The notes below the pieces were generated by a model, which worked only from the letters and a program-made list of their open reading frames with translations, searched no databases and had not been told where the DNA came from. A stretch of 64,000 nt of DNA from positions 11,007 through 75,006 of the forward strand of contig CAKQNS010000002.1 in NCBI GenBank assembly GCA_934255455.1, read 5' to 3'. Source of the stretch: an uncultured Alphaproteobacteria bacterium (GTDB taxonomy: Bacteria; Pseudomonadota; Alphaproteobacteria; Rs-D84). The position numbers and the translations under genes are program-made. Below, piece by piece: positions 23,559-61,573 of this stretch (position 1 is the stretch's first letter; the number at the start of each line of letters is the position of its first letter).

Positions 23559-24023
23559 TTATTCGCCGTATATTATTTCAACGGTATTGTTGTTTGCGCC
23601 ATTTTTACAATTTCCCGTGGCCCCACTGTTTTTACCATTGGAATTTGTATATCCAATCGAATCAGACCAGGCCTTGGTAGCAAAATATTCACAATCAGAT
23701 TGCGCCAGCCCAGAAATAGTCACAACAAATTGGCGCGAATTAGATGGATCAACCGCCAACGCGTATGTCCCACCATACGGGTTTTGATTTGTCATACCAA
23801 TTACATTAAATATGGTGCTGTTGTTTATATGTGAATAATCGTCATATTCGCCCAGCAGTGTGCGAACCTGGGTCACCATTTGAATGACCTCGTCATTGAC
23901 AGCATTGCGCTTTTGCGTGCGCATGGCGGTTGAAATCATTCCAATCGCCCCAACAGTTATCACTCCCATGATGGCCAAAACACCCAACATTTCAATCATG
24001 GAACGCCCTGATTCTTGTCTCAT
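23559..24023 (-). CDS. Type IVb pilin (TcpA/BfpA/PilS-like major pilin)
   Basis: Class III signal MRQESG|RSMIEMLGVLAIMGVITVGAIG… with Glu at +5. N-terminal helix closely resembles TcpA (…VLGIMGVVSAGVV…AQRAIDSQN…). C-terminal Cys pair (SDCEYF…TGNCKNG) fits a D-region disulfide. Confidence 0.7.
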   Translation of the reverse strand: MRQESGRSMIEMLGVLAIMGVITVGAIGMISTAMRTQKRNAVNDEVIQMVTQVRTLLGEYDDYSHINNSTIFNVIGMTNQNPYGGTYALAVDPSNSRQFVVTISGLAQSDCEYFATKAWSDSIGYTNSNGKNSGATGNCKNGANNNTVEIIYGE

Positions 24024-24072: not shown

Positions 24073-25494
24073 ATGGATGTTCAATTTTCTGATTTAATCG
24101 CAAACAGCCCAAATGCCCCCGGGGTCTATAAAATGTACGACGCCGATGGCGCATTATTGTATGTGGGCAAGGCAAAAAACCTGTCAAACCGGCTGAAACA
24201 ATATGTGGACACATCCAAATTGGAATTGCATAAACAGGTTATGCGCAGTCTGGTCGCGCGCGTTGATTGGGAAACCGTTCCCACCGAATCGGACGCGTTA
24301 TTGCGCGAACAGGAATTGATTAAAACCCTGCGTCCCAAATATAATATTATGTTGACCGATGGGAAAATGTACCCAATGTTGGCATTGACCAATTCGGAAT
24401 ATCCGCGCCTGTTAAAATTTCGCGGTAAAATTTCCCAGCGGCGCGATGTATATGGCCCATATCCGTCGGTTGGCGCATTGAACGAAACTATTAAAACAAT
24501 TCAAAAAGTATGCCAGATTCGCACATGCAACGATACATTTATGCGCAATCGCGCGCGCCCATGCTTATTACACCAAATTGGCCGATGCAGCGCACCATGT
24601 GTATTACCCCAAACAGATTACGACGCACGCGTCGGCTTGGCGCGCCGAATCTTGACTGGGGACAGCGAACCAATCATTGCTGAATTAACACAACAAATGC
24701 AAAAATTTTCATCGGAAATGGATTTTGAATCGGCGGCGGCGGTGCGCGATAAAATCGCCGAATTAACGCATACATCAAATCGCGGTATGCGGCGTGAACG
24801 TGCACATAGCGCGAATTTTGATTGGGAAAATTCTGTCAATGATTTGGAACAATTTTCCGGTGTAAAAATACAGATAGTTGGTGTATTTGACAATTCACAT
24901 TTGTTTGGCCGCAGTCCCGTTGGTGCGATGATAACATTTGGTCACAATGGTTTCATAAAAAATGGATACCGCCATTTCAAATTACGCAATGCAGCCGCCG
25001 CCGGAAACGATATTGCAATGATGGCCGAATTTGTAACCCGCGCGACCGAAAAAAATAAACTGGATATGATTATTGTTGATGGCGGTATGGCGCAATGGCG
25101 CATTGCACACCGCGTTGCACCCAACATTCCGATTTTGGGTGTCACCAAGGGCGAGGTTCGCAACGGCGACGAACACTTTATTATGCCTGATGGCACCATC
25201 AACCGCGATGTCCCCAAGGATTCACGATTGTTTTTATTGTTGCGTGCCGTCCGGGACGAGGCACATCGTTTCGTCATAACATATCACCGCACCGTTCGCG
25301 CAAAGACAATGACATCATCGGTACTGGATGATATTGAAGATATCGGTCCAAAACGCAAACACGCCCTGCTGACACATTTCGGTGCAGTTCGTGAAATTGC
25401 CGATGCCGATATGGCCGCATTGTTGCGCGTTCCGGGGCTGGGGCGCAGTGCCGCCGAAAAAATTTATGCCTATTTCCATTCTGGGGTGGTATAA
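24073..25494 (+). CDS. uvrC: Excinuclease ABC subunit C (compact form)
   Basis: GIY-YIG motif GVYKMYDADGALLYVGKAKNLSNRLKQY. Cys cluster. UvrB-interaction region (FESAAAVRDKIAEL). C-terminal HhH (LLRVPGLGRSAAEKI). 473 aa from ATG 24073, shorter than the ~600-aa norm. Confidence 0.8.
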   Translation: MDVQFSDLIANSPNAPGVYKMYDADGALLYVGKAKNLSNRLKQYVDTSKLELHKQVMRSLVARVDWETVPTESDALLREQELIKTLRPKYNIMLTDGKMYPMLALTNSEYPRLLKFRGKISQRRDVYGPYPSVGALNETIKTIQKVCQIRTCNDTFMRNRARPCLLHQIGRCSAPCVLPQTDYDARVGLARRILTGDSEPIIAELTQQMQKFSSEMDFESAAAVRDKIAELTHTSNRGMRRERAHSANFDWENSVNDLEQFSGVKIQIVGVFDNSHLFGRSPVGAMITFGHNGFIKNGYRHFKLRNAAAAGNDIAMMAEFVTRATEKNKLDMIIVDGGMAQWRIAHRVAPNIPILGVTKGEVRNGDEHFIMPDGTINRDVPKDSRLFLLLRAVRDEAHRFVITYHRTVRAKTMTSSVLDDIEDIGPKRKHALLTHFGAVREIADADMAALLRVPGLGRSAAEKIYAYFHSGVV

Positions 25495-26166: not shown

Positions 26167-26200
26167 CGCACTATGTGCACTGTTTCCTGCACATAGCGCG
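26167..26200. repeat. Full palindromic copy of the GCGCTATGTGCA motif family (cgcactatgtgcactgtttcctgcacatagcgcg), also acting as the dnaJ terminator
   Basis: 13-bp arms around an 8-nt loop. Half-site copies at 43277, 52105 and 54403. Confidence 0.6.
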
Positions 26201-43272: not shown

Positions 43273-43317
43273 AAAACGCGCTATGTGCACGATTTACTGG
43301 GACACAAAGGATTTAAT

Positions 43318-48359: not shown

Positions 48360-48527
48360 ATGCAAATCATTGGTATTGTAAATAACAATCACATCACGGG
48401 CGTTGAATATGGTCCCATTGAAATCCATGCGCCGAAAACGGATTACAAACACGCGCAACATCGTGCACAGCAAATCAATTCAATCCAGGCACGTGCAAAA
48501 CGCAACCTGCGCACCAGACAAAAATAG
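48360..48527 (+). CDS. Small hypothetical protein (55 aa)
   Basis: Strong RBS AAAGGAG 6 nt upstream of the ATG. Sits between gatB and miaB. No similarity recognised. Confidence 0.3.
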   Translation: MQIIGIVNNNHITGVEYGPIEIHAPKTDYKHAQHRAQQINSIQARAKRNLRTRQK

Positions 48528-48532
48528 TACAA

Positions 48533-49837
48533 ATGAAAAAGTTTTTTATCCAGACATTTGGCTGTCAAATGAATGTGTATGACGGCCAACGCATTGCGGC
48601 CATGCTGGCGCACCACGGTTTAACACAAACAGACGCTGTGGCCGATGCCGATATTATTATATTAAACACTTGTTCCGTACGAGAAAAAGCAACGAACAAG
48701 GTTTATTCCGCCCTGGGGCGCATTCGCAAAGAAAAAAAGCCCACTGCCCTGTTTGGCATTGTTGGGTGTGTTGCACGCGAAAGTGGCGCCGATGCATTCA
48801 AGCGCATTCCGGATTTGAATTTTGTTTTGGGCCCACAAAGTTATCATAAATTACCAGAAATTTTGAACGACCCCGATACACGTTTATTAAATATCGATTT
48901 GGGCGGTCTGGAAAAATTTGATGAATTGCCACAAATGCAGACATCACCATCGGTCGCATATATTCCAATTCAAGAAGGATGCAATCACTGCTGTACATAC
49001 TGTATTGTGCCGTATACACGCGGTCGCGAAATTTCGCGTTCATTTAATGATGTTATGCGCGACACGGTTCACGCCGCAGAAACGGGCGCGATTGAAATAT
49101 GCTTTTTGGGTCAAAATGTAAATGGATATAAATATACCGATGAAAACGGCAAGTTATGGCGACTGTCTGATTTAATTCGGGCGACCGCGAAACTGGATAA
49201 TGTCAAACGCATTCGTTTTACATCCAGTTATCCAACCGAAATGACTGACGATTTGATTGAAATGTTTGCAATTGAACCGAAATTGTTGCCATTTCTGAAC
49301 ATGCCTATACAAAGTGGGTCGCCCAATGTATTGACACGAATGAACCGCCCATATTCATTAAATCTATATATAGATATAGTTGACAAATTACGTGCTGCAC
49401 GACCCGATATTCAAATTTCCAGCGATTTTATTGTTGGGTTCCCCGGCGAAACCGACGACGATTTCGCACAAACAATGCAAATTGCGGAAAAGGTAAAATA
49501 TATCAATTCGTATTCTTTCAAATATTCACCCCGCCCCCACACGGCGGCGGCCGTAATGCCAAATCAAATATCAGAACAGATAAAGGCCGCGCGCCTGGCA
49601 AAACTGGACGGATATTTGAACGAAATTCAACGCGCATTTAATGAAAATTGCGTTGGCAAAACATTTGAATGCCTGTGCGAGGGTCGCGACAAAACCGGTC
49701 ATCACCTGGTATACCGTACACCGTATATGCAGCAATGCATTGTTGATGCCCCGGGCGGCGCCGCACCAATAATGGCAAATATCAAAATAACCGCGGCCAA
49801 CAAGGCGTCCCTGCGCGGGGAACTGGTCAAAGAATAA
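48533..49837 (+). CDS. miaB: tRNA-i6A37 methylthiotransferase MiaB
   Basis: MTTase N-terminus FIQTFGCQMNVYDG, radical-SAM CxxxCxxC (CNHCCTYCIVPYTRG), TRAM domain. Confidence 0.85.
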   Translation: MKKFFIQTFGCQMNVYDGQRIAAMLAHHGLTQTDAVADADIIILNTCSVREKATNKVYSALGRIRKEKKPTALFGIVGCVARESGADAFKRIPDLNFVLGPQSYHKLPEILNDPDTRLLNIDLGGLEKFDELPQMQTSPSVAYIPIQEGCNHCCTYCIVPYTRGREISRSFNDVMRDTVHAAETGAIEICFLGQNVNGYKYTDENGKLWRLSDLIRATAKLDNVKRIRFTSSYPTEMTDDLIEMFAIEPKLLPFLNMPIQSGSPNVLTRMNRPYSLNLYIDIVDKLRAARPDIQISSDFIVGFPGETDDDFAQTMQIAEKVKYINSYSFKYSPRPHTAAAVMPNQISEQIKAARLAKLDGYLNEIQRAFNENCVGKTFECLCEGRDKTGHHLVYRTPYMQQCIVDAPGGAAPIMANIKITAANKASLRGELVKE

Positions 49838-49842
49838 TAAAT

Positions 49843-51381
49843 TCAGAACGCAAAACGTGCGTTAAATGACACACGATGCATTGTACCAAAATCGGTTGTG
49901 ATAATGCCGAATTCGGCACCACCGCCGGCGGCATCAAACACAGACCAGGCATCAATATGCAATGCAGCACCAACATCGCCCGATGTTTCGGCGCGCATAC
50001 GCAAACCATAATCGTATGTCAAATCATCCGTGCCACCATGCGTATCAATATCAACGCCAATGCCAGTGTTGCTTTTATTATCCGACTGGTGTGCCACCAC
50101 GGCACGGTTTATGCCGGCGCCCGCAAAGGGCGTAAAAACAAAATCACCATCCGGATTCAAATGAACCCCAACATCAAATTGACCATAAAAACTTTTACCA
50201 TTTGGCGCCGAACGCGTCTTGGCACCGTCCATAACAAAATCTGATTCAAATGTGGCAAACGATGCTCCAACAATGCCACGCGCCATAAATTCGCCGTTGT
50301 CATATTTTGCACCAATATTTGCACCGACAAACGAACCAACAAAATCATTTATATCGTCCGACACATCAACCATACCGGCATAACCCGCAACACCAACATT
50401 AAAATTATTTGTAAAGGCTACACCATACGACATACGCGCCGCGTTTATATTTGCTTCCGCATTTTTAATTACAATTGGCGCAATGTAAAAATCATTTTCA
50501 ATGTTCAAATTAAACATTTCAAACGCATCAAACACCCGCACAGGATTCATCAGATTTATCGGATTCAGCCGCACAGATTTTGCCATAACTCCACGCAATG
50601 CCTCGATATCCGGTGCGCCATCCATTGCGACCAGCAATCTGTCATGTGGAGACGCCGCACGCACCGAATGCAGGAAATTTCCAGTATTTGAATCAAGTAT
50701 CTTGCGATAGTCTGTTTCACGAACCGTTGTCACATACAGCTTGTCATTTTCTATGTATGTTTTGATTGCCATCAACGGATTATCATTTGGCGCAATAATT
50801 GTTGCAACGCCGGTACCACCAATATTATCAATTAAAATTCCATTGGCCAAATCACGCAACGAATTCACATACAATTTTACATTTCCAATCAATTGTATCA
50901 ACGACGTGTCTGCAATTGTGGAATCAATAACCAACGATGAATTTTCCAGAATTATGCGACCGCTGGTGCCACCAATTGAAACTATATCGCCCAACGATAA
51001 CATTTCGGCATTGCGAACTAATATTGAATAATCAACATCCGTTTCTAAATTTTTTATGTCATCTGACGAAGTTATCAATTGTGTCAAACGCGAATTTGTC
51101 CCCAAATAAAAATCGGCATCCATTGTGCCACTGTTTTTAATGCTCAACGCCATACCATCGGCGACATGAATATTGCCCTGGAACAAACCACGGTTTTCGA
51201 ACGCCAATGCCGCATCAATGTACAAATCTGAAATATAAACACCGCCACGCATATCAATATATACATCATCCGCCACATGATAATCAGACGCATACATACC
51301 ACCATAAAAGCGCTCACCGTATGATGTCGTCACCGACACCAGCGTCACAATGAAACCAAAGGCAATTTTTCCTATACGCAT
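49843..51381 (-). CDS. Autotransporter-like outer-membrane protein (passenger plus C-terminal beta-barrel)
   Basis: Signal peptide. Repetitive beta-rich N-terminal region. C-terminal ~250 aa with alternating aromatic/Gly beta-strand pattern ending …RVSFNARFAF (terminal Phe). Confidence 0.55.
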   Translation of the reverse strand: MRIGKIAFGFIVTLVSVTTSYGERFYGGMYASDYHVADDVYIDMRGGVYISDLYIDAALAFENRGLFQGNIHVADGMALSIKNSGTMDADFYLGTNSRLTQLITSSDDIKNLETDVDYSILVRNAEMLSLGDIVSIGGTSGRIILENSSLVIDSTIADTSLIQLIGNVKLYVNSLRDLANGILIDNIGGTGVATIIAPNDNPLMAIKTYIENDKLYVTTVRETDYRKILDSNTGNFLHSVRAASPHDRLLVAMDGAPDIEALRGVMAKSVRLNPINLMNPVRVFDAFEMFNLNIENDFYIAPIVIKNAEANINAARMSYGVAFTNNFNVGVAGYAGMVDVSDDINDFVGSFVGANIGAKYDNGEFMARGIVGASFATFESDFVMDGAKTRSAPNGKSFYGQFDVGVHLNPDGDFVFTPFAGAGINRAVVAHQSDNKSNTGIGVDIDTHGGTDDLTYDYGLRMRAETSGDVGAALHIDAWSVFDAAGGGAEFGIITTDFGTMHRVSFNARFAF

Positions 51382-51477
51382 ACAGGAAATTTAGCATATA
51401 TGAAATGTTTCTTACAATAAAAAAGCAACCCGGGATTACCCCGGGCGCCAGATTCATGAACAAATAACAATTATTTT

Positions 51478-52017
51478 TTACATTTTAGAAATGTTGCCAA
51501 TACTCCCCCATGCGGCCTTGTACCCGCCATCACGTGTCAGATACAATTTTGCATTATTCAACTGTTTTGCGGTCAACCCACGAATCATAAATGTTTCTTG
51601 CAGTTGGCCGACTCTGTCTATACGCAATGTTGGCAAAGTTATAGGCATAGCCGCATTGTCACAGCACATACCATTGGCACATGGGCCGCATTGGTGTATA
51701 CGCATTGTGTATGTCACACCTGGGCGCAGATCTTGCAAATCTGTTTCCATTTTCAAGCCCGCATCGGTTTCCATAAATTTAATATACCCCATTGCAGACT
51801 CACCACCACGGCTGCTGCGTGTGAACATTTTCGCCGCGACACGATTAACCGCGGCATCTTCGTACGTCTGATAGAACATAACAGTTTCTGCCGGTTTATT
51901 GTGTGCTGGATGATGCTTTGCTTTTTTATTGCTACACATACCCGCACATCCTGACAATATTGCTGCCATGCCAATCACAGATGACATAACAAACACTTTT
52001 TTCATCATGTCTTTCAT
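51478..52017 (-). CDS. SodC-like (Cu/Zn superoxide dismutase fold) lipoprotein, probably lacking the full set of metal-binding His
   Basis: Lipobox LSGC. …GYIKFMETDAGLKMETDLQDLRPGVTYTMRIHQCGPC… and …ITLPTLRIDRVGQ…FMIRGL…LYLTRDGG… align with the SodC Greek-key blocks (GFHVHE.G.C / …LPAL.VD.G…IHAGGD). Only one His is retained. Confidence 0.4.
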   Translation of the reverse strand: MKDMMKKVFVMSSVIGMAAILSGCAGMCSNKKAKHHPAHNKPAETVMFYQTYEDAAVNRVAAKMFTRSSRGGESAMGYIKFMETDAGLKMETDLQDLRPGVTYTMRIHQCGPCANGMCCDNAAMPITLPTLRIDRVGQLQETFMIRGLTAKQLNNAKLYLTRDGGYKAAWGSIGNISKM

Positions 52018-52104
52018 AAAGGTCTCCTTTTCCTTTGGTTTACATGCCAAATTGTATATTATTTTTATATACTTTTCGCCAGGTATGATTACCTAGGAAT
52101 CCCA

Positions 52105-52125
52105 GGAAACAATGCACATAGCGCG
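52105..52125. repeat. GGAAACAATGCACATAGCGCG motif copy
   Basis: Matches the right arm of the 26167 palindrome and the copy at 54403. Confidence 0.5.
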
Positions 52126-52129
52126 TTTT

Positions 52130-52567
52130 TTATATCACGCGTTTAATGTGCAACAGTGCGCGCACGGCAAACGGCATTGCAACCAAATTTTGTAATAACA
52201 ACGCGGCGATATAATTACGTGGAAACGCAATTATATATTGCGATAAATTTATCACATGACCTGTTTCAATAATTGGCGCAACAAATGTCATTGTTCCCGC
52301 CATACACGCCGTCATAATAAACGGCGTATATTTCATTAAACCGAATCGCATCACCGTATGATGTACCAACGGTACAACAATAAAGAAATTCAGCACAACT
52401 GCAAATGCATATATTGGCATAAACCCACGGCAAAATGTCGTTGCATTCAACACCCCATGAATCCACAGATTCAACCCCATCATACCAATGACCATAATAA
52501 AACTGTTTGCCAAACAAAATATAACCGATTCGGTTTTTGTTTCCGGTCTGATATGTACACTACTCAT
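52130..52567 (-). CDS. Hypothetical small membrane protein (four TM)
   Basis: Hydrophobic segments and internal duplication. No recognised motif. Confidence 0.4.
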   Translation of the reverse strand: MSSVHIRPETKTESVIFCLANSFIMVIGMMGLNLWIHGVLNATTFCRGFMPIYAFAVVLNFFIVVPLVHHTVMRFGLMKYTPFIMTACMAGTMTFVAPIIETGHVINLSQYIIAFPRNYIAALLLQNLVAMPFAVRALLHIKRVI

Positions 52568-52692
52568 TTTTACACCCCATAAAAAACAGTGCCACCAACT
52601 GGACTTATGTGTTGATGGCACTGCGCGTTGTTATTATTTCTTGAAATTTGCGCTGGGCATTATAAATACAAATCAGCCACGGGTCAAGTTTT

Positions 52693-54321
52693 TCAACTGT
52701 ACAATTTCAAGAAAGATTTTAACAATGTTCGTGGTGAATATTGATGTTTATTTATTGATGTTAAATCTTTATCAATTCCCATCAGATAATACACCGCCCG
52801 CTGTGCGGCACGCACAGAATATTCCATGGTGAAAACCACATCATCGGGCTGTTCGGCAAATTGGCTGACGAATGCAAAATTTTCATACCCATGCGGATTT
52901 ACATCAGGCCGGTCGCCCGGGCGCCGAGGTTGAAATTGCGAATTGATATACGGCATAATGCATGTACGGCAAATGACACCACGCATCATATCAGCTTGCT
53001 GTTTCTTGGGCACATGCAAATGTCCCATCAATTCGGTCATTATTTCGCGACCGGTGCATTTGTACATCGGCTTTTTAACATAATCGCCATCAACAAACAT
53101 ATTCAAAGAATATCCCCAGAATATATTTGTATCGGCCGGCTGATTTTTAAAATGTGGTTGACGCGCAACAACAATGGACAGGCGCCACGCCGATTCGCGG
53201 AATGTCACCAATGCCCCACCACCGGGATGATTTGTGGTGAATTTTTGAATATATCCCAATACGCCCGGGTTGCTATTTATAGTTGTCGTGAACGACATCC
53301 ACATACTTTCATCGGGACGGCCGCAAAATACATCTGGGTCGCCAAATTCCGGTCGTCCGCGCGCAATACGGCGCCACAGTTCGAACGACGGGGCCGTTTT
53401 ATCACGATTGTATTTTGCAACTGTGTCGGTTGTGGCCTCAGCCGAATTATCGGTCATACAACCATTAGCAAACAAAACTATATCCGTTGGTTTTACCTTT
53501 ATTGTGCGTTCTTTGCCGCCCTTTTCGGTGTATAGAATTTTATCAGCAACATTATTTCCCGATTTATCGGTCACAAAGTTTATATCTGTCACGGTTGTGT
53601 TCAGCGAAATTTGCACCCCATGCTGGGCCAGCCATTCCGATATTGGACGAACGACAGAATCATATTGATTAAACGCCGTACGCGCGACACCAGCCAATGT
53701 GTGTATCCGCGGGAATTCATGCATAAAGCGCAACATATACCGACGCAATTCCGCCGCACTGGACCAGGGCTGAAACGCAAATGTCGTTTGCCACATCAAC
53801 CAGAAATTAGTTGTGAAAAAATGCTTGCCAAAAACCTCGTCAATGCGTTTGGCACCCAATGACTCCTCGCTCTCCATCAGAATCAGTTTTTCCATATCCA
53901 ATCTGTCAGATGTGGAAAATCCCATACGCGTCACATCAACTTTGGTCCCATCGGCATTTACCAACCGAGCACGTGAATGCGTTTTGAATTCGTCATTAAA
54001 ATTCAAAAATTCACGTTCCATATCTATCCCGTCAAATTCAATAGACGGAACCGCACTTATCATATCTTGGAAGCATTCGTATGTCGGAATGTTTAACATT
54101 CTGCCACCGCGTATCATATATCCACGACTGGCGTCACCGGCACCATCCAAACTGCCCCCGGCAACCGGCAATGTTTCCAGTATATGAATATTTTTGCCCA
54201 GAACATGTGCATCGCGAATTAAATAAACCGATGCCGCCAATGCCCCAATACCGCCGCCGATGATATATACATTTGTATCAGACGCGCGACGTTTTATTAA
54301 ACTTTTGCCTGTTTTTGCCAT
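52693..54321 (-). CDS. ohyA: Oleate hydratase (MCRA family, FAD-dependent fatty-acid hydratase)
   Basis: N-terminal FAD fold NVYIIGGGIGALAASVYLIRDA…ILETLPVAGGSLDG. 542 aa; MCRA-family blocks along its length. Confidence 0.8.
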   Translation of the reverse strand: MAKTGKSLIKRRASDTNVYIIGGGIGALAASVYLIRDAHVLGKNIHILETLPVAGGSLDGAGDASRGYMIRGGRMLNIPTYECFQDMISAVPSIEFDGIDMEREFLNFNDEFKTHSRARLVNADGTKVDVTRMGFSTSDRLDMEKLILMESEESLGAKRIDEVFGKHFFTTNFWLMWQTTFAFQPWSSAAELRRYMLRFMHEFPRIHTLAGVARTAFNQYDSVVRPISEWLAQHGVQISLNTTVTDINFVTDKSGNNVADKILYTEKGGKERTIKVKPTDIVLFANGCMTDNSAEATTDTVAKYNRDKTAPSFELWRRIARGRPEFGDPDVFCGRPDESMWMSFTTTINSNPGVLGYIQKFTTNHPGGGALVTFRESAWRLSIVVARQPHFKNQPADTNIFWGYSLNMFVDGDYVKKPMYKCTGREIMTELMGHLHVPKKQQADMMRGVICRTCIMPYINSQFQPRRPGDRPDVNPHGYENFAFVSQFAEQPDDVVFTMEYSVRAAQRAVYYLMGIDKDLTSINKHQYSPRTLLKSFLKLYS

Positions 54322-54402
54322 AATATATCCCCCTTGGTTTTATCAAAATAATAACAATTCAACCATCACATTATCCACAGGATACAAATCACAAAAAACG
54401 CC

Positions 54403-54422
54403 GGAAACAATGCACATAGCGC
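54403..54422. repeat. GGAAACAATGCACATAGCGC motif copy, followed by terminator hairpin cacccgcaataaatgcgggtg (54428-54450)
   Basis: Identical core to the copy at 52105. Intergenic between the ohyA start and the OMP gene end. Confidence 0.5.
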
Positions 54423-54472
54423 ATAAAAACACCCGCAATAAATGCGGGTGTTTTTGGTGCAAAATGTTTATA

Positions 54473-55081
54473 TCAGAACATAAATCTGATACCAACATCG
54501 CCACCAAAATTATGCAAACCGGAATTGACATCCGCGTATGTATAACGCGCTGCGACATCCACAGCAAAGTAATCCATATCGAATGTCATACCCAATGTTC
54601 CCATTGCGGCAACGCTGCCACGGCTTTGGTGATGATCCGCAACCGCTGGGATTTTACGAGTGACTTCCGAGAACGCCGCACCAACGCCCAATCCGACGAA
54701 CGGACGAACGATTTGGTAACCGCCGAATTCCCAATATGTATTGACCAACAATGTCTGCAATTTTGCATCAATGTCGACCTGGGTGCTTGTGCCAAATGTA
54801 TCATTGTCTTTGGCTTTGCTGAATATAGACCATTCAACTTCGCTGCGGACAGTGTCACAAATTTCCAAACCCAACGCCGCGCGGCCCTGGAATTCCATAT
54901 CGGTCATAGATTCTTTGCGGTCGTTAAAGCTGTAATTCAAATTGGTGTATCCCAAACCACCACGCAATGCAATGTATGGATCCAGACCAAACAATTGCCA
55001 ATCACTGCCACCCTTTTGTGTGCCTGCAAATGCCGGGCACGCAATCAACACAGCCAGTGTCGATATAACTATTTTTTTCAT
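54473..55081 (-). CDS. Small outer-membrane beta-barrel protein (OmpA-like/opacity-type 8-strand barrel)
   Basis: Signal peptide MKKIVISTLAVLIACPAFA. Alternating beta-strand pattern. C-terminal …GGDVGIRFMF. Confidence 0.65.
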   Translation of the reverse strand: MKKIVISTLAVLIACPAFAGTQKGGSDWQLFGLDPYIALRGGLGYTNLNYSFNDRKESMTDMEFQGRAALGLEICDTVRSEVEWSIFSKAKDNDTFGTSTQVDIDAKLQTLLVNTYWEFGGYQIVRPFVGLGVGAAFSEVTRKIPAVADHHQSRGSVAAMGTLGMTFDMDYFAVDVAARYTYADVNSGLHNFGGDVGIRFMF

Positions 55082-55210
55082 GTTTTCTCCTTTTATGTTT
55101 TATTTGTTAAAAACAGTTTCATGTCATGTCAACACTGTGATTGTATCAAACAAAAAAACATCTTTGCATAGGTATGGATTCCACGGGACGTACCCAGTAA
55201 CACAACCAGA

Positions 55211-55492
55211 TTATTTTACGCGCATGCCCAGTTTTATTTCCCACACGCGCGGCAAATTCAAATCGTTTTTTGCGGTCGTTTGGGAAACATCACTGATTGC
55301 AAATTCCATGGTGCGCGCCGTGTATCCGCGATGGAACACCACATGATACCGTACGCCCGAATCAATATCACGCGCAACGCGCCCCAACCTGTCATTCCAG
55401 TATGGTTTGCATTCGCGATATTCTGACGTTTTGTCGCCCTGCGCAATCTTGTCATACCACCGCCCTGCCAAAACCAAATGCAATTTTTTCAT
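55211..55492 (-). CDS. ASCH (PUA-like) domain protein
   Basis: MKKLHLVLAGRWYDKIAQGDKTSEYRECKPYWNDRL matches the ASCH N-terminal pattern H.L.L…W…I..G.KT.E.R. Confidence 0.45.
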   Translation of the reverse strand: MKKLHLVLAGRWYDKIAQGDKTSEYRECKPYWNDRLGRVARDIDSGVRYHVVFHRGYTARTMEFAISDVSQTTAKNDLNLPRVWEIKLGMRVK

Positions 55493-55595
55493 ACAAATAT
55501 TATATCACACCCAAAAATAATCATCCACAAGACACGCCCAGAGTATTTTACGAAAACCAAATAAAAAAACGCCGACAAGCGACGCTTTTTGTTCG

Positions 55596-55671
55596 TGGTG
55601 GACGCACAGGGACTCGAACCCTGGACCCACTGATTAAGAGTCAGTTGCTCTACCAACTGAGCTATGCATCC
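55596..55671 (-). tRNA. tRNA-Lys (anticodon CUU)
   Basis: Reverse complement GGATGCATAGCTCAGTTGGTAGAGCAACTGACTCTTAATCAGTGGGTCCAGGGTTCGAGTCCCTGTGCGTCCACCA. Anticodon loop CTCTTAA. Encoded CCA. Confidence 0.85.
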
Positions 55672-55743
55672 AGAACTGTTAAACTGTGGCAATTATATAT
55701 CTTTTTGCCGCATTTGCAAGCGTTTATTGCGCGCCGCGCGACA

Positions 55744-57171
55744 TCATCGCAAATACGACGACGGGTTGTATGCCTTGGTTCCCTTGCGAATTTCAAAGTG
55801 CAATTGCGGTTTGTCGACCTTGCCCGTGGCGCCGACCGTACCAATTTTCTGGCCAACCGACACACGCGCGCCGCGACGCACCGCCATTGAATCCATGTGT
55901 GCATAAACCGTCATCCAACCACCAGAATGCTGAATTATGACCAGGTTGCCCATACCTTTGACCTCGTTCCCGGCGTATGCAACAACACCATTTTCCGCCG
56001 CTTTGACCGCCGTGCCACGCGCGGCGCTGATATTTATACCATCGTTAAACAAACCGCCCGATTTTGCGCCATAGTGAGACAAAATCTTGCCCCGGACCGG
56101 CCACGAGAATTTTGATGATGATCGCGCCGCGATTGCTGGCAATTTTTTCGTTGGGTCGGACGATATTTTTTGCTTGGCCGGTTTGGTTTGGGTGGACGTT
56201 TTGATGGTGGCCGTGGTCCCCTGTTGTGTTGTTTTTGCCGCGGGTGTCGCCGATTGCGCGGGACGCGCGGGTGATTGTGGGGCCACCGTGGTTGCACCAC
56301 GCACCGGGGCAGATGCCAGGTTTGGAACCTTTAATTTTTGACCAACCGACAATGTAAATGGTGCCGAAATATTATTCATAACCGCCAAATCATTGACCGG
56401 GACCGAATATTTACGCGACAGCGAATATAATGTATCGCCCGCACCAACGGTAATTTCCGTCAATTGTACCCGCGTTGTTGTTGGCACATTTTTTGGCGTC
56501 GCCGGCGTTGCAGATGGCACCGCCGATGCAGTCGCGGCGCGCGGCGCCGATTGGGTTATGTACAATTTCTGGCCAATCTGCAATGGCTTTGACATATCCA
56601 GGTTATTTTTATTGGCCAATGCCTCGGGCGTGGTGGCGTATTGTTGTGCCAATGAATACAGTGTATCGCCACGGGTCACGGTTATGGTCGCGTTTGCCGT
56701 CGTGGGCGCAACATCTGCGCCATTATTATATTCCGGCACCGTTAAATAATCATCGGGCACCAATGTTGTTTGCGCGGACGCGCCCCCGGTCGGCGCATCT
56801 GTTTGTGTTATAACGACCGATGTTTCGGCATCATTTGTCACCGGCACAGATTCCGGCGGTGTACCATACATAATTGTTGTTTCCGATTGGGTCGGTGGAA
56901 CGATATAATCATCGACACTGGCGTATGTGACATAGTCAGATGTATCAACCGAACCGTACAATTGTGGCGACGCGTACACACCATAGTCACTTGCCGCCGA
57001 ATTATAAATTTCGGGCTGGGCATTCGGGTCGGCCAACAATGTTGGATAACGCGCGGCGATAAAATCGCCAACCGAATCCGGCAATGATGTTATCTTTGGC
57101 TGTAAATCACACCCCGATATAATCGGCAAAACCGTCACACAAAAAAATAACCAGATTTTTTTCACACACAA
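55744..57171 (-). CDS. nlpD: LysM-domain M23 peptidase lipoprotein (NlpD-like murein hydrolase activator)
   Basis: Lipobox ISGC. Pro/Thr-rich linker. Two LysM repeats (TRGDTLYSLAQQY…; VGAGDTLYSLSRKY…). C-terminal M23 domain (…GINISAARGTAVKAAENGVVAYAG…LVIIQHSGGWMTVYAH…). Confidence 0.85.
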   Translation of the reverse strand: MCVKKIWLFFCVTVLPIISGCDLQPKITSLPDSVGDFIAARYPTLLADPNAQPEIYNSAASDYGVYASPQLYGSVDTSDYVTYASVDDYIVPPTQSETTIMYGTPPESVPVTNDAETSVVITQTDAPTGGASAQTTLVPDDYLTVPEYNNGADVAPTTANATITVTRGDTLYSLAQQYATTPEALANKNNLDMSKPLQIGQKLYITQSAPRAATASAVPSATPATPKNVPTTTRVQLTEITVGAGDTLYSLSRKYSVPVNDLAVMNNISAPFTLSVGQKLKVPNLASAPVRGATTVAPQSPARPAQSATPAAKTTQQGTTATIKTSTQTKPAKQKISSDPTKKLPAIAARSSSKFSWPVRGKILSHYGAKSGGLFNDGINISAARGTAVKAAENGVVAYAGNEVKGMGNLVIIQHSGGWMTVYAHMDSMAVRRGARVSVGQKIGTVGATGKVDKPQLHFEIRKGTKAYNPSSYLR

Positions 57172-57208
57172 ATTATATCACAAATTGTGTAATAAATGAA
57201 AAGTAATC

Positions 57209-57925
57209 TTATTCAGATGGGCCGTCCCGCATGAACAATATGCTGGATTCAAACAATATCCACATTGGCAAAGCCAATGCAATTTGCGACACAACATCTG
57301 GGGGCGTTAAAATCGCCGCCACGATAACAATCAGAACAATCGCATACCGGCGCATTTTTATCACGCGCGCACGCGACAGCACCCCAATACGATTCAACAA
57401 AACCAGCGCCAATGGCAATTGGAACGCAATGCCGAAAACCTTTAACATACCAATTGCAAAGCCCAAGTAATCGCGCGCAGCGGGAATCAATATGGCTGGC
57501 ACCGGCGCCGATGTATTTAATTCCATAAAAAATCCAAACACAAATGGGAACATTACATAAAATGCAAACGCCCCACCGATTATAAATAATATCGGCGACA
57601 AAACCAAAAACGGCCAAATAAAATTACGTTCGGTATTTTTCAGGCCCGGCGCAATATATTGCCATAACTGATACAGTCCAAACGGAATCACAAATATAAT
57701 TCCAACCAACACCGCCAATGAAAACCGTATCATTAAACCGTCGGATATATTGTTATACAGCAATGCCCCATCGGGCCACACGCGCATCAATGGCGCGGTC
57801 AATAATTCTTGAGCATGCGGGGCAATATACCACCCACAAATTACCGCCACCAAAAACATTCCGAATGTCCACAGCACACGGCGACGTAATTCGGCGAAAT
57901 GTTGCATCATAGTCATTTTTTGCAT
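57209..57925 (-). CDS. tatC: Twin-arginine translocase subunit TatC
   Basis: …HFAELRRRVL… six TM. TatC-family blocks throughout. Confidence 0.9.
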   Translation of the reverse strand: MQKMTMMQHFAELRRRVLWTFGMFLVAVICGWYIAPHAQELLTAPLMRVWPDGALLYNNISDGLMIRFSLAVLVGIIFVIPFGLYQLWQYIAPGLKNTERNFIWPFLVLSPILFIIGGAFAFYVMFPFVFGFFMELNTSAPVPAILIPAARDYLGFAIGMLKVFGIAFQLPLALVLLNRIGVLSRARVIKMRRYAIVLIVIVAAILTPPDVVSQIALALPMWILFESSILFMRDGPSE

Positions 57926-58209
57926 TTTGTGCCCCGCCCTGTCTTTCTGGTTTTCTTGGGTGCAATTGGTGTCGAAAATTCCGCCAGCACATCATCAGTC
58001 GTCGTGCGTATCAATTCATCAATTGGTTGTTCCAATTCAATGGTATTTTTTATCTGTTCAGATGCATCGGTAATTTTCCAAATTATTTGGCGTACAAATT
58101 TTACCACACGCGCAATTGCACGCGCCACATCGGGCCACATGCGCGGTGGCAAAACCAATACCGCAACCAAAATTATTACCGCAAATTCAGCCCAACTGAT
58201 TCCGAACAT
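57913..58209 (-). CDS. tatB: Twin-arginine translocase TatA/TatB-family protein (TatB-like)
   Basis: MFGISWAEFAVIILVAVLVLPPRMWPDVARAIARVVKFVRQ… N-terminal TM plus amphipathic helix. Overlaps the tatC start by 13 nt. Confidence 0.75.
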   Translation of the reverse strand: MFGISWAEFAVIILVAVLVLPPRMWPDVARAIARVVKFVRQIIWKITDASEQIKNTIELEQPIDELIRTTTDDVLAEFSTPIAPKKTRKTGRGTKCKK

Positions 58210-58220
58210 ATACCAATCCA

Positions 58221-58835
58221 TCAATCATAGAAATCGTCGCCGCCACTGGTGCTGACGGTTTTGTGTCGTGATATTTGAAAATAGTTTTTCCCGAAATCTG
58301 TTTTTGTTTTCAGCCCCGAAAACGCGACATCGGTTGTTGTGCCGGTGGCGTCAACGACACTCCACGAATTTAACTTTACGGGCTTCTTGTCAAATACAAC
58401 CGTCATGTGCCCCAAACCCTCTTGACCGCGCAAATTTAATTTTAACGAAAAAGTTCTTTTATCATCTGTGGTTTCAACAACATTTATATCGGCATTTTTC
58501 AAATCAATTTTTTTGCGAATTAAAATGCCAGCGGGGGTACTGGTCAATGGCACAGTTGTAATTTGGTCCAGTGAACTGTCAAAAAAATACAAATCGCGAC
58601 CGTCAGCAATCAATTGCACCGGCATATCGTTATAGTCCAACCGAACACGACCCGGGCGCAACATAGAAAACACACCATGCTGTTTTTTACCAGACGCAGT
58701 TTGCGTGAAATCACCGGTCAGCCCAGTTATAGAATTCAAATATTTTTCCGCCGAATTCACCAAAGCATTGTCAACCGCGGCACGGGCCGGAATTACCATC
58801 ATGCACAACAAAATTGCGGCAAATATTTTTTTCAT
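58221..58835 (-). CDS. lolA: Outer-membrane lipoprotein carrier protein LolA-like
   Basis: Signal peptide. …GDFTQTASGKKQHGVFSMLRPGRVRLDY…LYFFDSSLDQIT… LolA half-barrel pattern. Confidence 0.65.
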   Translation of the reverse strand: MKKIFAAILLCMMVIPARAAVDNALVNSAEKYLNSITGLTGDFTQTASGKKQHGVFSMLRPGRVRLDYNDMPVQLIADGRDLYFFDSSLDQITTVPLTSTPAGILIRKKIDLKNADINVVETTDDKRTFSLKLNLRGQEGLGHMTVVFDKKPVKLNSWSVVDATGTTTDVAFSGLKTKTDFGKNYFQISRHKTVSTSGGDDFYD

Positions 58836-59788
58836 AATTGCTCCTTTTTGAACAAATCCAATAATTTTGTGCGAACATTTTCCAATGTGTCGTCAATAAC
58901 AGCGCCAGCTGCGAATGTATGCCCCCCACCACCCATTGCCGTTGCAATGTGTTCAACCGGGTGACTGCGCCCGCGCAGTGACAGGCCAATCTTATTTTCT
59001 TTTTGTTCTTTTAATAACGCAATACATTCAACGCCACGTATTTGCGCCAACAAATTCAAAATCAATTCACCGCGACCATCCAAATGCTTGTAATCTTTTT
59101 TGAAAACCGTTGCCAACGCCAATTTTCCACGGAATAAAAATTCGGCATTAGAAACAACCGCGGCCTCGGTCTGGACGGCGCGACGCGGTTTGTTGTTCAT
59201 ACCATCGGCCAATTCGGCAATGTTTGCACCCGCGTCCACCAAATCGGCCATTATGCGCAAAACATCACCACGACGGGCAAATTTGAAAAAACCGGTATCG
59301 GTCAATATAGACACCGACAACAAATCGCGAACAATATCATCAGATTTCCAATTTAATTCCCGCATTATCTGATACACAATTTGACCAGCGGCCATTGCTG
59401 TATCATCGTCGATGCACAATTGTGCCACATGCGCGTCATTTATATGATGGTCGATTTCAACGGTATACCGCGCGTTTTCCAAAATAGGCATTGTGCCACC
59501 GATGTTTCGTGCCGTACCATAATCCATCACAATCGCAACATCAAACGGGCGCGCCAGATCCAAATGTTCAAAATATGTTATGCGATGCCGTTCGGGCACA
59601 TTATCCAACGCATCGGGAATATTACCATCGTATGTACAAATTGGACGACGACCATAATTTAATTCTATCAACCGCGCCAATGCCAACACGCTGCACAACG
59701 CATCACCATCGGGATTTTTATGTGCAAAAATTGCAATCGAACGCGCCGACCGAATTTTCTCGTCAAAAATTTTCAGTTTATCATCCAT
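58832..59788 (-). CDS. nrnA: DHH-DHHA1 phosphoesterase, NrnA-like (nanoRNase / pAp phosphatase)
   Basis: DHH motifs (…IFAHKNPDGDALCS…, …VEIDHHINDAH…) and DHHA1 (…GGGGHTFAAGA…). 318 aa. Confidence 0.8.
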   Translation of the reverse strand: MDDKLKIFDEKIRSARSIAIFAHKNPDGDALCSVLALARLIELNYGRRPICTYDGNIPDALDNVPERHRITYFEHLDLARPFDVAIVMDYGTARNIGGTMPILENARYTVEIDHHINDAHVAQLCIDDDTAMAAGQIVYQIMRELNWKSDDIVRDLLSVSILTDTGFFKFARRGDVLRIMADLVDAGANIAELADGMNNKPRRAVQTEAAVVSNAEFLFRGKLALATVFKKDYKHLDGRGELILNLLAQIRGVECIALLKEQKENKIGLSLRGRSHPVEHIATAMGGGGHTFAAGAVIDDTLENVRTKLLDLFKKEQL

Positions 59789-59797
59789 ATATAAATC

Positions 59798-61573
59798 CTA
59801 TATTGCAATATCTTCAACAAAGAATTGCGCACTTTTGCGGCCATTATATTCGTTTTCTTTCAACCGCCCCAGCATTGTAATTGTAGTGTTTGTGTTTGCA
59901 TCGTCCAGTAAAAAATCACCAACCGGCGTTCCAACCAGATTAAACCCGACAAACGCCAATTGACCGTTGCTGGTCATAACATTGCCGCGCAAATGCGCGC
60001 CATTACCCATAACACTGGCAAAGCGCAACGACGCCCCATGCAGAATCAACATTGGTTCGGGGTTGCCCTGGCCGAATGGTTCCAGTGCGCCCATTTGTTC
60101 AATCAATTTCATATTTGCAGCACCGGCGTCTAATTCGGCATCGGCCACAATTTCACATGTTGGGATTTCGCCATTTAATTGCGCTCGCACGGCATTTTCC
60201 AGAAATTCGCGGAACGCGGCCTCGTTTTCCGTACGCAAAGAAAATCCCGCCGCCGCCGCATGACCGCCGCCCTCGGACACAACGCCCGCCGCCAATGCAT
60301 CGTGAATAATGCGGCCTAAATCGACCCCGGCAATAGAACGGCCCGAACCATTTATCATACCATCGGCACGCGTCGCGACGCATGATGGCAAATTATATTT
60401 ATCCTTTAACCGGCCTGCAATAATTCCCATAACACCGCCATGCCAATTATCGCCACAAACAAACAAACTGCAATTGCCGGTCTGTTTGCATTTTTCGGCC
60501 TGGGCATCGGCACACAACATAATTGCATTTTGAATATCAATGCGTTCCTGGTTCATGTGGTGCAATTTATTTGCCAAATCGCCCGCAATCAATGGATTAT
60601 CGGTCAACAGCAATTCCAATGCCGGTGCGGCCGAATCCAACCGCCCCGCCGCATTCAACCGCGGCCCCAACGCAAACCCGGCCGCATATACAGATGGCCG
60701 ACGAATACCCGCAACATCCATCAATACGCGCAGCCCCAAATTTTGGTGCAACCCCAATACTTTCAGTCCCGTTGCAACAAACGCGCGGTTTAATCCAACC
60801 AACGGCATAGTGTCACAAATGGTCCCCAACGCCACCAAATCCAAATAATTCATCAAATTCAGATTATTCACGCGCGCCCGCATATCATCGGATAAATCGC
60901 GCGATTTTAATTCACGTCGCAATGCAACCATTGTCAAAAATGCAACACCAACCCCCGCCAGATATGATAACCCAGACGTGTCATCCGTGCGTTTTGGATC
61001 AATCACCGCATCGGCTGCCGGCAAAACCGCGTCGGGTGAATGGTGGTCGGTCACAACAACCCGCATTCCCAATTCGCGTGCATGTGCGACATCGGACGCG
61101 CCGGAAATTCCACAATCAACCGTTATCAGCAACTTTGCGTCCTGGGACGCAATTTCATCAATTGCATGCGCGTTCAGGCCATATCCTTCGCCCTCGCGGG
61201 TGGGCAAATGCCAAATACAATCCACCCCCAACGCCCGCAAACATTTAATGCAAATTGCGGTCGATGTAATTCCATCAACATCATAGTCACCGTATATTGC
61301 AATTTTATCACCACGCAAAACACTGTCTGCAATGATGCGCGCGGCATCGTCCATATCGTGCAGCACAGATGGATCTGGCATATATTCTTTGATACTGGGG
61401 TTCAGGAACTTTTCCTGGGCATCGGCCCCAGTCACACCACGACTGACCAAAATTTTTTGTACTAAATTATCAGCCCCGGCGGCGCCATCATCAGATGTCG
61501 CCACCATCCATGCCCGCCCCAGCATGGATTTATCTACTACTTTTCTCACGCTATACTCTTTTTTTATTATCAA
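59798..61573 (-). CDS. recJ: Single-stranded-DNA-specific exonuclease RecJ
   Basis: DHH motifs (IAIYGDYDVDGITSTA…, VVVTDHHSP), DHHA1 (…GGGHAAAAGFSL…), C-terminal OB domain. ~590 aa. Confidence 0.9.
   Translation of the reverse strand: MIIKKEYSVRKVVDKSMLGRAWMVATSDDGAAGADNLVQKILVSRGVTGADAQEKFLNPSIKEYMPDPSVLHDMDDAARIIADSVLRGDKIAIYGDYDVDGITSTAICIKCLRALGVDCIWHLPTREGEGYGLNAHAIDEIASQDAKLLITVDCGISGASDVAHARELGMRVVVTDHHSPDAVLPAADAVIDPKRTDDTSGLSYLAGVGVAFLTMVALRRELKSRDLSDDMRARVNNLNLMNYLDLVALGTICDTMPLVGLNRAFVATGLKVLGLHQNLGLRVLMDVAGIRRPSVYAAGFALGPRLNAAGRLDSAAPALELLLTDNPLIAGDLANKLHHMNQERIDIQNAIMLCADAQAEKCKQTGNCSLFVCGDNWHGGVMGIIAGRLKDKYNLPSCVATRADGMINGSGRSIAGVDLGRIIHDALAAGVVSEGGGHAAAAGFSLRTENEAAFREFLENAVRAQLNGEIPTCEIVADAELDAGAANMKLIEQMGALEPFGQGNPEPMLILHGASLRFASVMGNGAHLRGNVMTSNGQLAFVGFNLVGTPVGDFLLDDANTNTTITMLGRLKENEYNGRKSAQFFVEDIAI

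Follow-up and report, generated by a model that had tools for sequence, protein, structure and literature searches.

Envelope genes and two variable slots between miaB and tRNA-Lys in the Candidatus Enterousia clade

Genes and signals between miaB and tRNA-Lys

We analysed a 64,000-nucleotide (nt) stretch of DNA from an uncultured alphaproteobacterium of the order Rs-D84 (assembly GCA_934255455.1, contig CAKQNS010000002.1, positions 11,007 to 75,006; hereafter the window), and in particular the 5.8-kb block of envelope genes at 49843-55671, between miaB and a tRNA-Lys gene. A first-pass annotation of the same sequence had proposed this whole block as an accessory island integrated at the tRNA. 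Candidatus Enterousia, to which we assign the window, is a member of this order; its genomes measure ~0.75-1.0 Mb and encode neither a tricarboxylic acid cycle nor respiration (PMC12306168). No record was found with exactly the MiaB sequence of the window, but a similarity search with that protein yielded 80 loci at species level with 79-97% identity (given L numbers here), almost all from gut metagenome-assembled genomes and nearly all labelled Candidatus Enterousia, uncultured Rickettsiales or Alphaproteobacteria. The gene order of the backbone could be read in 70 of the 80 loci, which had enough sequence to be informative. L001 is a sister species at 92% nt identity and served as the reference for synonymous divergence (dS) and for the ratio of nonsynonymous to synonymous divergence (dN/dS). 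L085 and L083 belong to the window's own species (98-99% identical), of which 24 contigs were compared, and window positions 48473-61081 recur at 99.99% identity in a Hadza/Nepal gut contig. The features of the block and of its flanks are as follows (aa, amino acids; OMP, outer-membrane protein).

48533-49837, plus strand: miaB (TIGR01574, E 5e-134), core gene of the left flank and anchor for the 80 loci
49843-51381, minus strand: autotransporter, 512 aa, ending in ...ARFAF (open reading frame and fold)
51428-51446, minus strand: hairpin resembling an intrinsic terminator, after the lipoprotein gene
51478-52017, minus strand: SodC-fold lipoprotein, 179 aa from the ATG at 52017 (open reading frame 51478-52050)
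52105-52125, plus strand: motif copy A, in the conserved upstream region of the lipoprotein gene
52130-52567, minus strand: integral membrane protein, 145 aa, an open reading frame that is variably present
52659-52687, minus strand: strong sigma-70-like promoter (TTGACC-17-TATAAT) for the membrane-protein gene
52693-54321, minus strand: ohyA, oleate hydratase dependent on flavin adenine dinucleotide (FAD) of the MCRA family, 542 aa, variably present
54348-54377, minus strand: promoter-like site for ohyA (TGGATA-18-TATTAT, extended -10)
54403-54423, plus strand: motif copy B, ~80 nt upstream of the ohyA start, beside the OMP terminator
54425-54455, read from the sequence: bidirectional terminator hairpin after the OMP gene (AAAAA-CACCCGCA-ATAAA-TGCGGGTG-TTTTT)
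54473-55081, minus strand: putative small outer-membrane beta-barrel protein (OMP), 202 aa, core-syntenic
55185-55559: strain-variable 'ASCH islet' in the 3' flank of tRNA-Lys
55211-55492, minus strand: phage-type small protein, ASCH-like, 93 aa
55564-55590, minus strand: terminator hairpin directly after tRNA-Lys, common to L085
55596-55671, minus strand: tRNA-Lys, anticodon CTT (ARAGORN; Rfam 73 bits), its 3' end facing the variable segment
55692-55719, minus strand: promoter-like site for tRNA-Lys (TTGCAA-16-TATAAT)
55744-57171, minus strand: LysM/M23 protein (DipM/NlpD-like), core gene of the right flank

Every long open reading frame (ORF) between miaB and tRNA-Lys(CTT) is on the minus strand, and miaB and the autotransporter gene are convergent, 5 nt apart. 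The minus-strand ORFs of the first-pass annotation are all in place (49843-51381, 51478-52050, 52693-54321, 54473-55081 and 55211-55492), and ARAGORN and Rfam agree with it on the tRNA at 55596-55671; its list holds for these genes but had overlooked the membrane protein at 52130-52567. Each block gene has promoter-like or terminator-like signals of its own, and in an Rfam scan of the block the tRNA alone was matched.

The protein encoded next to miaB had been described as autotransporter-like, a description that its fold bears out. In an AlphaFold2 (AF2) model built with 20 homologues (predicted local distance difference test score, pLDDT, of 88), residues 4-14 form a signal helix, 22-221 a beta-rich passenger and 225-290 a set of helices, and the chain closes with a barrel of 12 strands (298-510), modelled at pLDDT >90, and a C-terminal F. 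The best Foldseek matches are the barrels of EstA, EspP, Hbp, NalP and BrkA, at E 1e-9 to 1e-10. The model confirms the protein as a predicted type Va autotransporter that would display a short beta-helical passenger, with an N-terminal signal peptide predicted from helix 4-14. Like the known members of this type (EstA, EspP, Hbp, NalP, BrkA, AIDA-I), it combines signal peptide, beta-rich passenger, helical linker, 12-strand C-terminal barrel and terminal aromatic residue; unlike them, it has no Pfam match even at E<=10 (PF03797 included) and no PDB sequence match, and its passenger spans just ~200 aa. One distant homologue carries PF03797. The family counts 22 matches, so far in the Enterousia clade only, and its gene is the fastest-evolving of the block, with a mean pairwise identity of 30% vs 84% for core genes.

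The adjacent lipoprotein, which is core-syntenic across the clade, has 339 homologues, none of them with a Pfam domain. The family has an LSGC lipobox, four invariant Cys (CxxC...CC) and several invariant Met, and among 38 aligned members there is not one invariant His, HxH being replaced by R-I-H/Y. The folded domain is modelled by AF2 at pLDDT ~90, and all 29 Foldseek matches at E<=1e-3 are Cu,Zn superoxide dismutases (SODs), with target-normalised template-modelling scores up to 0.65. Profile scores fall below cutoff (Sod_Cu PF00080, 15.1 bits vs 28.9; NF007628, 22.6 bits vs 165), and SOD sequences, YojM included, are weakly matched over the first strands. The degenerate SodC fold of the first-pass annotation is thus upheld by the Foldseek matches and by the absence of an invariant His. 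Without such a residue neither a Cu nor a Zn site is possible, so the protein cannot be a classical Cu,Zn SOD; this absence, together with the four Cys and the lipobox, therefore makes it a SodC fold that lacks the metal sites of SODs. YojM of Bacillus subtilis (PDB 1S4I, 1U3N, 1XTM) is a ligand-deficient SodC-like lipoprotein, and the two have in common that they are lipoproteins lacking part of the metal site. The window protein shares with SodC and YojM the beta-sandwich and the weak match over the first strands, and differs in having no invariant His in its family, a shortened zinc loop, four invariant Cys and several Met. The linker after the lipobox is rich in His, Gln and Lys and very variable in length, with up to ~50 extra residues in some homologues. 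The invariant Met, the four Cys and the His-rich linker hint at metal handling rather than dismutation.

The third conserved envelope protein, the OMP, reaches 28.4 bits with OMP_b-brl against a cutoff of 28.7, and has weak Opacity and Rick_Adr matches. It had been annotated as an 8-strand OMP, a label that has this borderline match as its basis, and we treat it as a putative small barrel.

Gene order and composition across the clade

The 5.8-kb block is conserved chromosomal backbone and not an island. Its miaB, autotransporter, lipoprotein and OMP genes are collinear in 68 of the 70 informative loci (67 in the automated count, which dropped L045 solely for a 1-nt overlap), and the autotransporter gene adjoins miaB in 69 of the 70. 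Across the clade gatA, gatB and miaB run forward and are followed in reverse by the autotransporter gene, the lipoprotein gene, a first variable interval between the lipoprotein and OMP genes (slot 1), the OMP gene, a second variable interval in the 3' flank of tRNA-Lys (slot 2) with the tRNA itself, and then M23, tatC, tatB and lolA. The tRNA-Lys position was scanned in 43 loci, and tRNA-Lys(CTT) lies between the OMP and M23 genes in 42 of them; the remaining locus, L009, ends too soon. There are two exceptions to the synteny. In L073 (12988-14722) the segment from the OMP gene to the lipoprotein gene is inverted, and in L076 (11300-17700) ~6 kb are inserted after miaB and no autotransporter homologue was detected.

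Composition is native as well. GC content at third codon positions is 0.39-0.55 in the block genes against a window mean of 0.467 (sd 0.042), and the Kullback-Leibler scores for codon usage of ohyA (0.051) and of the autotransporter gene (0.078) are typical of long genes. GC content stays within the range of the window, and GC skew resembles that of neighbouring minus-strand regions. Measured against L001, the block genes have dS values of 0.29-0.41 and gatA, gatB and miaB of 0.25-0.34, and dN/dS is 0.03-0.05 for core genes and ohyA, 0.17 for the autotransporter gene and 0.25 for the 93-aa gene, all below 0.26. No copy of the tRNA-Lys 3' end was found in the window at 16-24 nt with 1-4 mismatches, near 49.8 kb or elsewhere, the only matches being to the D-arm region of tRNA-Phe. 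Pfam, NCBIfam and PHROG scans found no integrase or other mobility gene among the block genes, as the first-pass annotation had stated.

Its proposal of an accessory island covering all of 49.8-55.7 kb fails on each of the comparisons that it had suggested, namely gene order from miaB to tRNA-Lys in relatives, deviation in GC skew or codon usage, and a direct repeat of the tRNA end near 49.8 kb. Given the conserved order and the native composition, we therefore find for the block as a unit the very combination that the annotation itself had named as speaking against an island. One could still suppose that the whole block entered at tRNA-Lys as a single ancient island, before the Enterousia radiation, and has since fully ameliorated. 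The block does end at a tRNA, its genes are of surface or host-interface type, and the tRNA flank is demonstrably an integration site in the window's species, as seen in L085 below. But the backbone is present in essentially every species sampled, its composition and dS are native, there is neither an attachment (att) repeat near 49.8 kb nor an integrase, and where att-like repeats do occur, they stand between the OMP gene and the tRNA, at 0.15-2.3 kb from the latter. As stated, such an island would be indistinguishable from plain core genome, and we consider it very unlikely.

Slot 1 and the intergenic motif

Slot 1 ranges from 61 bp to 2.9 kb across loci. Its gene content was scored in 67 species, and all eight combinations of presence and absence of a DUF5856 gene, the membrane-protein gene and ohyA occur:

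DUF5856 present, membrane gene absent, ohyA absent: 26 species
DUF5856 present, membrane gene present, ohyA absent: 9 species
DUF5856 present, membrane gene absent, ohyA present: 8 species
DUF5856 absent, membrane gene present, ohyA present: 7 species, plus the window
DUF5856 absent, membrane gene absent, ohyA absent: 6 species
DUF5856 absent, membrane gene absent, ohyA present: 5 species
DUF5856 absent, membrane gene present, ohyA absent: 4 species
DUF5856 present, membrane gene present, ohyA present: 2 species

At this position ohyA is found in 22 of the 67 species and the membrane gene likewise in 22 of 67. The DUF5856 gene, which the window lacks, is present in 45 of the 67 loci (e.g., L038:13540-14073(+), divergent from the lipoprotein gene), and its product matches PF19174 (35.7 bits) and also phrog_858, a 'starvation-inducible regulator'. 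On the 145-aa membrane protein, DUF2798 gives E 0.007 (16.8 bits vs 23.5) for a 99%-identical copy and no match for the window copy; homologues are also 145 aa long, and precomputed labels assign them to DUF2798.

The identification of OhyA as an MCRA oleate hydratase is unambiguous: it scores 649 bits with PF06100 (E 6e-195) and 681 bits with NF010584 (cutoff 567), and both EmOhy and SaOhyA align with it from end to end at E ~1e-117. Its FAD-binding GxGxxG motif (IIGGGIGALAAS) is present and the Tyr equivalent to Y241 is kept. In the alignment to 4UIR the catalytic Glu (E122 of EmOhy, E82 of SaOhy) is replaced by Met75, which makes the protein a 'Met-type' hydratase, and RGGRM is found in 23 of 23 clade sequences. 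The same Glu to Met replacement, with a short C-terminus, occurs in ReOhy of Rhodococcus, an active HFam3 enzyme (PMC8403116). With EmOhy (4UIR), SaOhyA (7KAV) and ReOhy (5ODO) the window protein shares the full-length MCRA domain, the GxGxxG motif and the Tyr, and with ReOhy in particular the Glu to Met exchange and a short C-terminus. From its family, OhyA would be expected to hydrate cis-9 unsaturated fatty acids and may serve as a detoxifier of them.

The distribution of ohyA follows the core genome. OhyA pairwise identity correlates with core identity (r = 0.82), more tightly than tatC or lolA does, and the species that bear ohyA fall in one part of the core tree, intermixed with species that do not. 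L007 and L011, close to the ohyA-bearing L009 and L010, have lost ohyA via two deletions with different junctions; both have kept the membrane-gene promoter and both motif copies, and the promoter-like stretch of ohyA went with the gene. The pattern in slot 1 is best read as vertical inheritance with repeated loss.

The motif copies concerned share GGAAACAATGCACATAGCGCG, which occurs three times in the window at <=3 mismatches (52105, 54403 and 26167) vs 0 times in 100 shuffles. The first-pass annotation had seen copies of it flanking the whole block. The motif is indeed real and non-random, but copies A and B, identical at 24 of 27 nt, enclose the pair of membrane gene and ohyA and not 49.8-55.7 kb, and the third copy, at 26167, forms an arm of a perfect terminator-like palindrome at 26168-26200, in the interval between pgsA and dnaJ. 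A 12-nt core, TGCACATAGCGC (<=1 mismatch), has 104 instances in 1.58 Mb of clade sequence, where a rough uniform model expects ~7; 82 of the 104 are intergenic, many at orthologous sites, and inverted pairs of the motif form terminator-like palindromes between convergent genes, as between pgsA and dnaJ. In 24 aligned species the core of copy A (GCGCTATGTGCA) is kept within a conserved non-coding block, ~100 nt upstream of where the lipoprotein gene starts, irrespective of the genes in slot 1. Copy B lies ~90 nt upstream of ohyA in six species, and persists in L007 and L011 where ohyA is gone. Loci with an empty slot 1 have one motif copy, at a B-like distance from the OMP stop codon, and therefore a motif-to-motif deletion may have produced those six loci.

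The placing of the two copies raises the possibility that the membrane gene and ohyA form a mobile cassette, inserted and excised by recombination between two direct motif copies of 21-27 nt. The copies flank exactly this pair of genes at 24/27 nt, and loci with an empty slot carry a single copy. Yet L007 and L011 lack ohyA and keep both copies, their deletion junctions are not at the motif, and in every subclade copy A belongs to the conserved stretch upstream of the lipoprotein gene. Moreover, the motif is also present at unrelated intergenic sites and as terminator palindromes, the three slot 1 genes assort independently, and OhyA divergence tracks that of core genes, so that we regard a cassette as unlikely. 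The motif is not an island boundary and is probably a clade-wide cis-element associated with promoters or terminators. It resembles repetitive extragenic palindromic (REP) elements and uptake sequences in its short over-represented core, mostly intergenic placement, occasional inverted terminator-like pairs and conservation across species. It differs from them in its density of ~1 per 15 kb, in single copies that are not palindromic, and in several copies at fixed distances upstream of start codons, which is more operator-like.

The core is not consistently a hairpin arm, being mostly paired in 62 of the 104 instances on one strand and in 38 of 104 on the other. Comparison by eye with consensus sequences gave the wrong spacing or sequence for sigma-54 and extracytoplasmic function (ECF/EcfG) promoters, parS, LexA, Fur and a signal resembling the DNA uptake sequence (DUS). 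Another TGCACATAGCGC core, at 43277-43297, lies 29 nt upstream of a PerM/AI-2E-like transporter gene, right after the stop codon of the preceding membrane gene, and one at 24800-24813 falls within uvrC. In many species the site upstream of the transporter gene and that of the lipoprotein gene are conserved.

Slot 2 and the history of the locus

Slot 2 is the plastic part of the locus: it measures 0.3-5.5 kb across species and holds different genes in different lineages. Inspection of their translations suggests, among others, a methyltransferase accompanied by a TetR regulator, a short-chain dehydrogenase/reductase (SDR), a 2-hydroxyacid oxidase dependent on flavin mononucleotide and a 1211-aa protein. 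In the window it consists of 375 bp with the phage-type gene, which is present in just 4 of the 80 loci. The 93-aa product matches phrog_625 (E 3e-13) and, by tblastn, sequences in 110 phage records at 30-40% identity, two of which are annotated with an ASCH domain. It had been called an ASCH protein; the phrog_625 match and these third-party phage annotations agree with that name, but there is no Pfam match at E<=10 (PF04266 included), no PDB match below E 0.07 and no PADLOC match. In L001 there are further genes to either side of it, for a methyltransferase, a TetR regulator, a lipoprotein, a membrane protein and a product read as GIY-YIG-like, which matches phrog_5356.

Within the window's species the segment varies between strains. 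The window layout is common to 22 of the 24 contigs with an identical OMP, and in L085 and L083 other DNA stands in place of 55185-55559. The replacement in L085 is 2327 bp long, between flanks that are 98.3-99.0% identical on both sides, and runs from the tRNA 3' end to a 17-nt direct repeat of it (TCCCTGCGCGTCCACCA), with 16/17 matching. A terminator directly follows the tRNA 3' end in both variants, and a second one stands at the distal repeat of L085. This cargo (L085:3570-5896; ENA ERZ27287326, k141_1650287) encodes a PD-(D/E)xK/DUF4365-like ORF called at 169 aa, a 370-aa Cys-rich lipoprotein and a 95-aa membrane protein; it has no integrase, no defence gene by PADLOC and no PHROG match. 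Judging from its ends, the L085 cargo carries the signature of integration at the tRNA 3' end. In 13 species loci the 17-nt tRNA end is also found as a copy at a distance of 140-175 nt from the tRNA; in L073 a second tandem copy is 316 nt away. No integrase was found among the scanned slot 2 ORFs (the three of L085 and the GIY-YIG-like gene of L001), and the ORFs of other relatives were read by eye. A search of viral contigs with the att-proximal sequence gave nothing, and with the ASCH protein one weak partial match.

By analogy with L085, the most economical reading of the window's 375 bp is that they would be a decayed remnant of such an element, and an old one, because its dS against L001 (0.33) is like that of core genes. 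The idea of a tRNA gene serving as an integration site therefore survives for the 3' flank of tRNA-Lys and not for the envelope genes, and that of an old integrase-less tRNA island for 55185-55559 alone and not for the rest of the block. As in tRNA-gene islands and prophage remnants, variable DNA abuts the tRNA 3' end, a 17-nt repeat is present in L085 and a phage-type gene is left behind; unlike them, the elements are tiny (0.4 kb in the window, 2.3 kb in L085), lack an integrase and, in the window, a repeat, and the 5-kb envelope set lies outside.

Taken together, we propose, at a probability of about 80%, that 49.8-55.7 kb is a conserved Enterousia backbone of envelope genes interrupted by two small indel slots, and that the motif is a cis-element. 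The backbone would consist of separately transcribed genes for the autotransporter, the Cys-rich SodC-fold lipoprotein and the small OMP barrel, followed by tRNA-Lys, the DipM-like M23 protein, TatBC and LolA. Slot 1 would hold three independent genes (DUF5856, membrane gene, ohyA), inherited vertically and lost differentially during genome reduction, of which the window would have kept the membrane gene and ohyA. Slot 2 would hold DNA exchanged by integration into the tRNA-Lys 3' end and later decayed, with the integrase acting in trans or lost; what is left in the window would be a terminator and one phage-type ASCH-like gene, without an att repeat or integrase. All systems at the locus are of known kinds.

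Several points weigh against this proposal. All of the relatives are metagenome-assembled genomes or metagenome contigs, and the variation in gene presence could in principle be an artefact of assembly or binning, the more so as L011 is labelled Bacteroides fragilis and L013 Muribaculaceae, members of an unrelated phylum. However, each state is contained in one unbroken contig whose flanks are conserved to the left and right, independent assemblies show the same states, the junctions are clean to the base, and 24 contigs of the same species were read; an artefact is thus extremely improbable. In slot 1, the direction of change, from a full ancestor by losses rather than by repeated gains, is suggested by parsimony and by the two deletion scars, not by an outgroup. 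At this locus ohyA is absent from the two other major subclades, and it may have been gained horizontally once, long ago, at the base of one subclade, a possibility left because the search for OhyA homologues returned clade members only (>=76% identity) and no outgroup. In addition, the OhyA of L009 and L010 is 91% identical to that of the window, vs 80-83% for L002-L006, while core identity runs slightly the opposite way, which hints at some exchange within the clade. In slot 2, no integrase was found in any locus examined, and the window itself is without an att repeat, so that the case for an integrated ASCH segment is built on the parallel with L085.

It follows from the comparison that virulence-looking surface genes beside a tRNA are not necessarily an island; here they belong to the core genome of an uncultured gut lineage with reduced genomes. 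The fast-evolving autotransporter found throughout the clade and the unannotated SodC-fold lipoprotein family are conserved surface components and candidates for interaction with a host or partner. The ohyA gene is optional and would have been lost repeatedly, and its presence could indicate which lineages encounter unsaturated fatty acids. A small active insertion site at tRNA-Lys appears to be kept even in genomes of ~0.9 Mb.

The same flank holds a further repeated feature. After the tRNA-Lys terminator, 13 species loci have a unit of 125-165 nt that the window lacks (e.g., L003:16117-16275(-), L010:17110-17274(-), L013:8550-8712(-), L073:19995-20326(-), with two tandem copies, and L054:14390-14565(+)). 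It starts with GGACGAG-AACCC-(variable loop)-GGGTTCGA, has more hairpins inside and, at its end, repeats the last 17-19 nt of the tRNA, CCA included; the right end of the L085 island corresponds to its last ~85 nt. Rfam gave nothing near threshold for the unit and ARAGORN no transfer-messenger RNA (tmRNA), an identity that we also rejected by eye, finding no tag reading frame with a stop codon in the element sequences. RNAalifold on eight copies yields a weak consensus (-12 kcal/mol) with little covariation. Such units may be what miniature integrative elements have left behind, or else a tRNA-like RNA. A more far-reaching picture would have the tRNA-Lys flank served by undescribed miniature elements without an integrase, of which L085 would be the version with cargo, or by a new tRNA-like small RNA, and would make TGCACATAGCGC the operator of a clade-specific regulon linking the SodC-like lipoprotein, ohyA and the PerM-like transporter; as a joint proposal we hold this to be doubtful.

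Some observations concern neighbouring positions. A pair of genes for an S-adenosylmethionine (SAM) methyltransferase and a TetR regulator has the OMP gene on one side and the ASCH gene or tRNA on the other in L001 (16684-17980) and L081 (284-1580), and also in L002, L006 and L007; its junction falls exactly at window position 55184, 103 nt upstream of the OMP start, and the pair is absent from the window. In a large subclade (L014, L016-L019, L022-L027, L029, L035, L042, L044 and others) tRNA-Lys is on the opposite strand from that in the window and L001-L013, a local inversion within a spacer of often just ~300 bp. At 54371-54379, between motif copy B and the ohyA promoter, the window has a perfect DnaA-box nonamer (TTATCCACA), which is imperfect in L010 and L007 and is probably due to chance. 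Finally, an ORF of 154 aa at 23559-24023 on the minus strand has a prepilin-type N-terminus (GRSMIEMLGVLAIMGVI), which suggests a component of a type IV pilus or pseudopilus.

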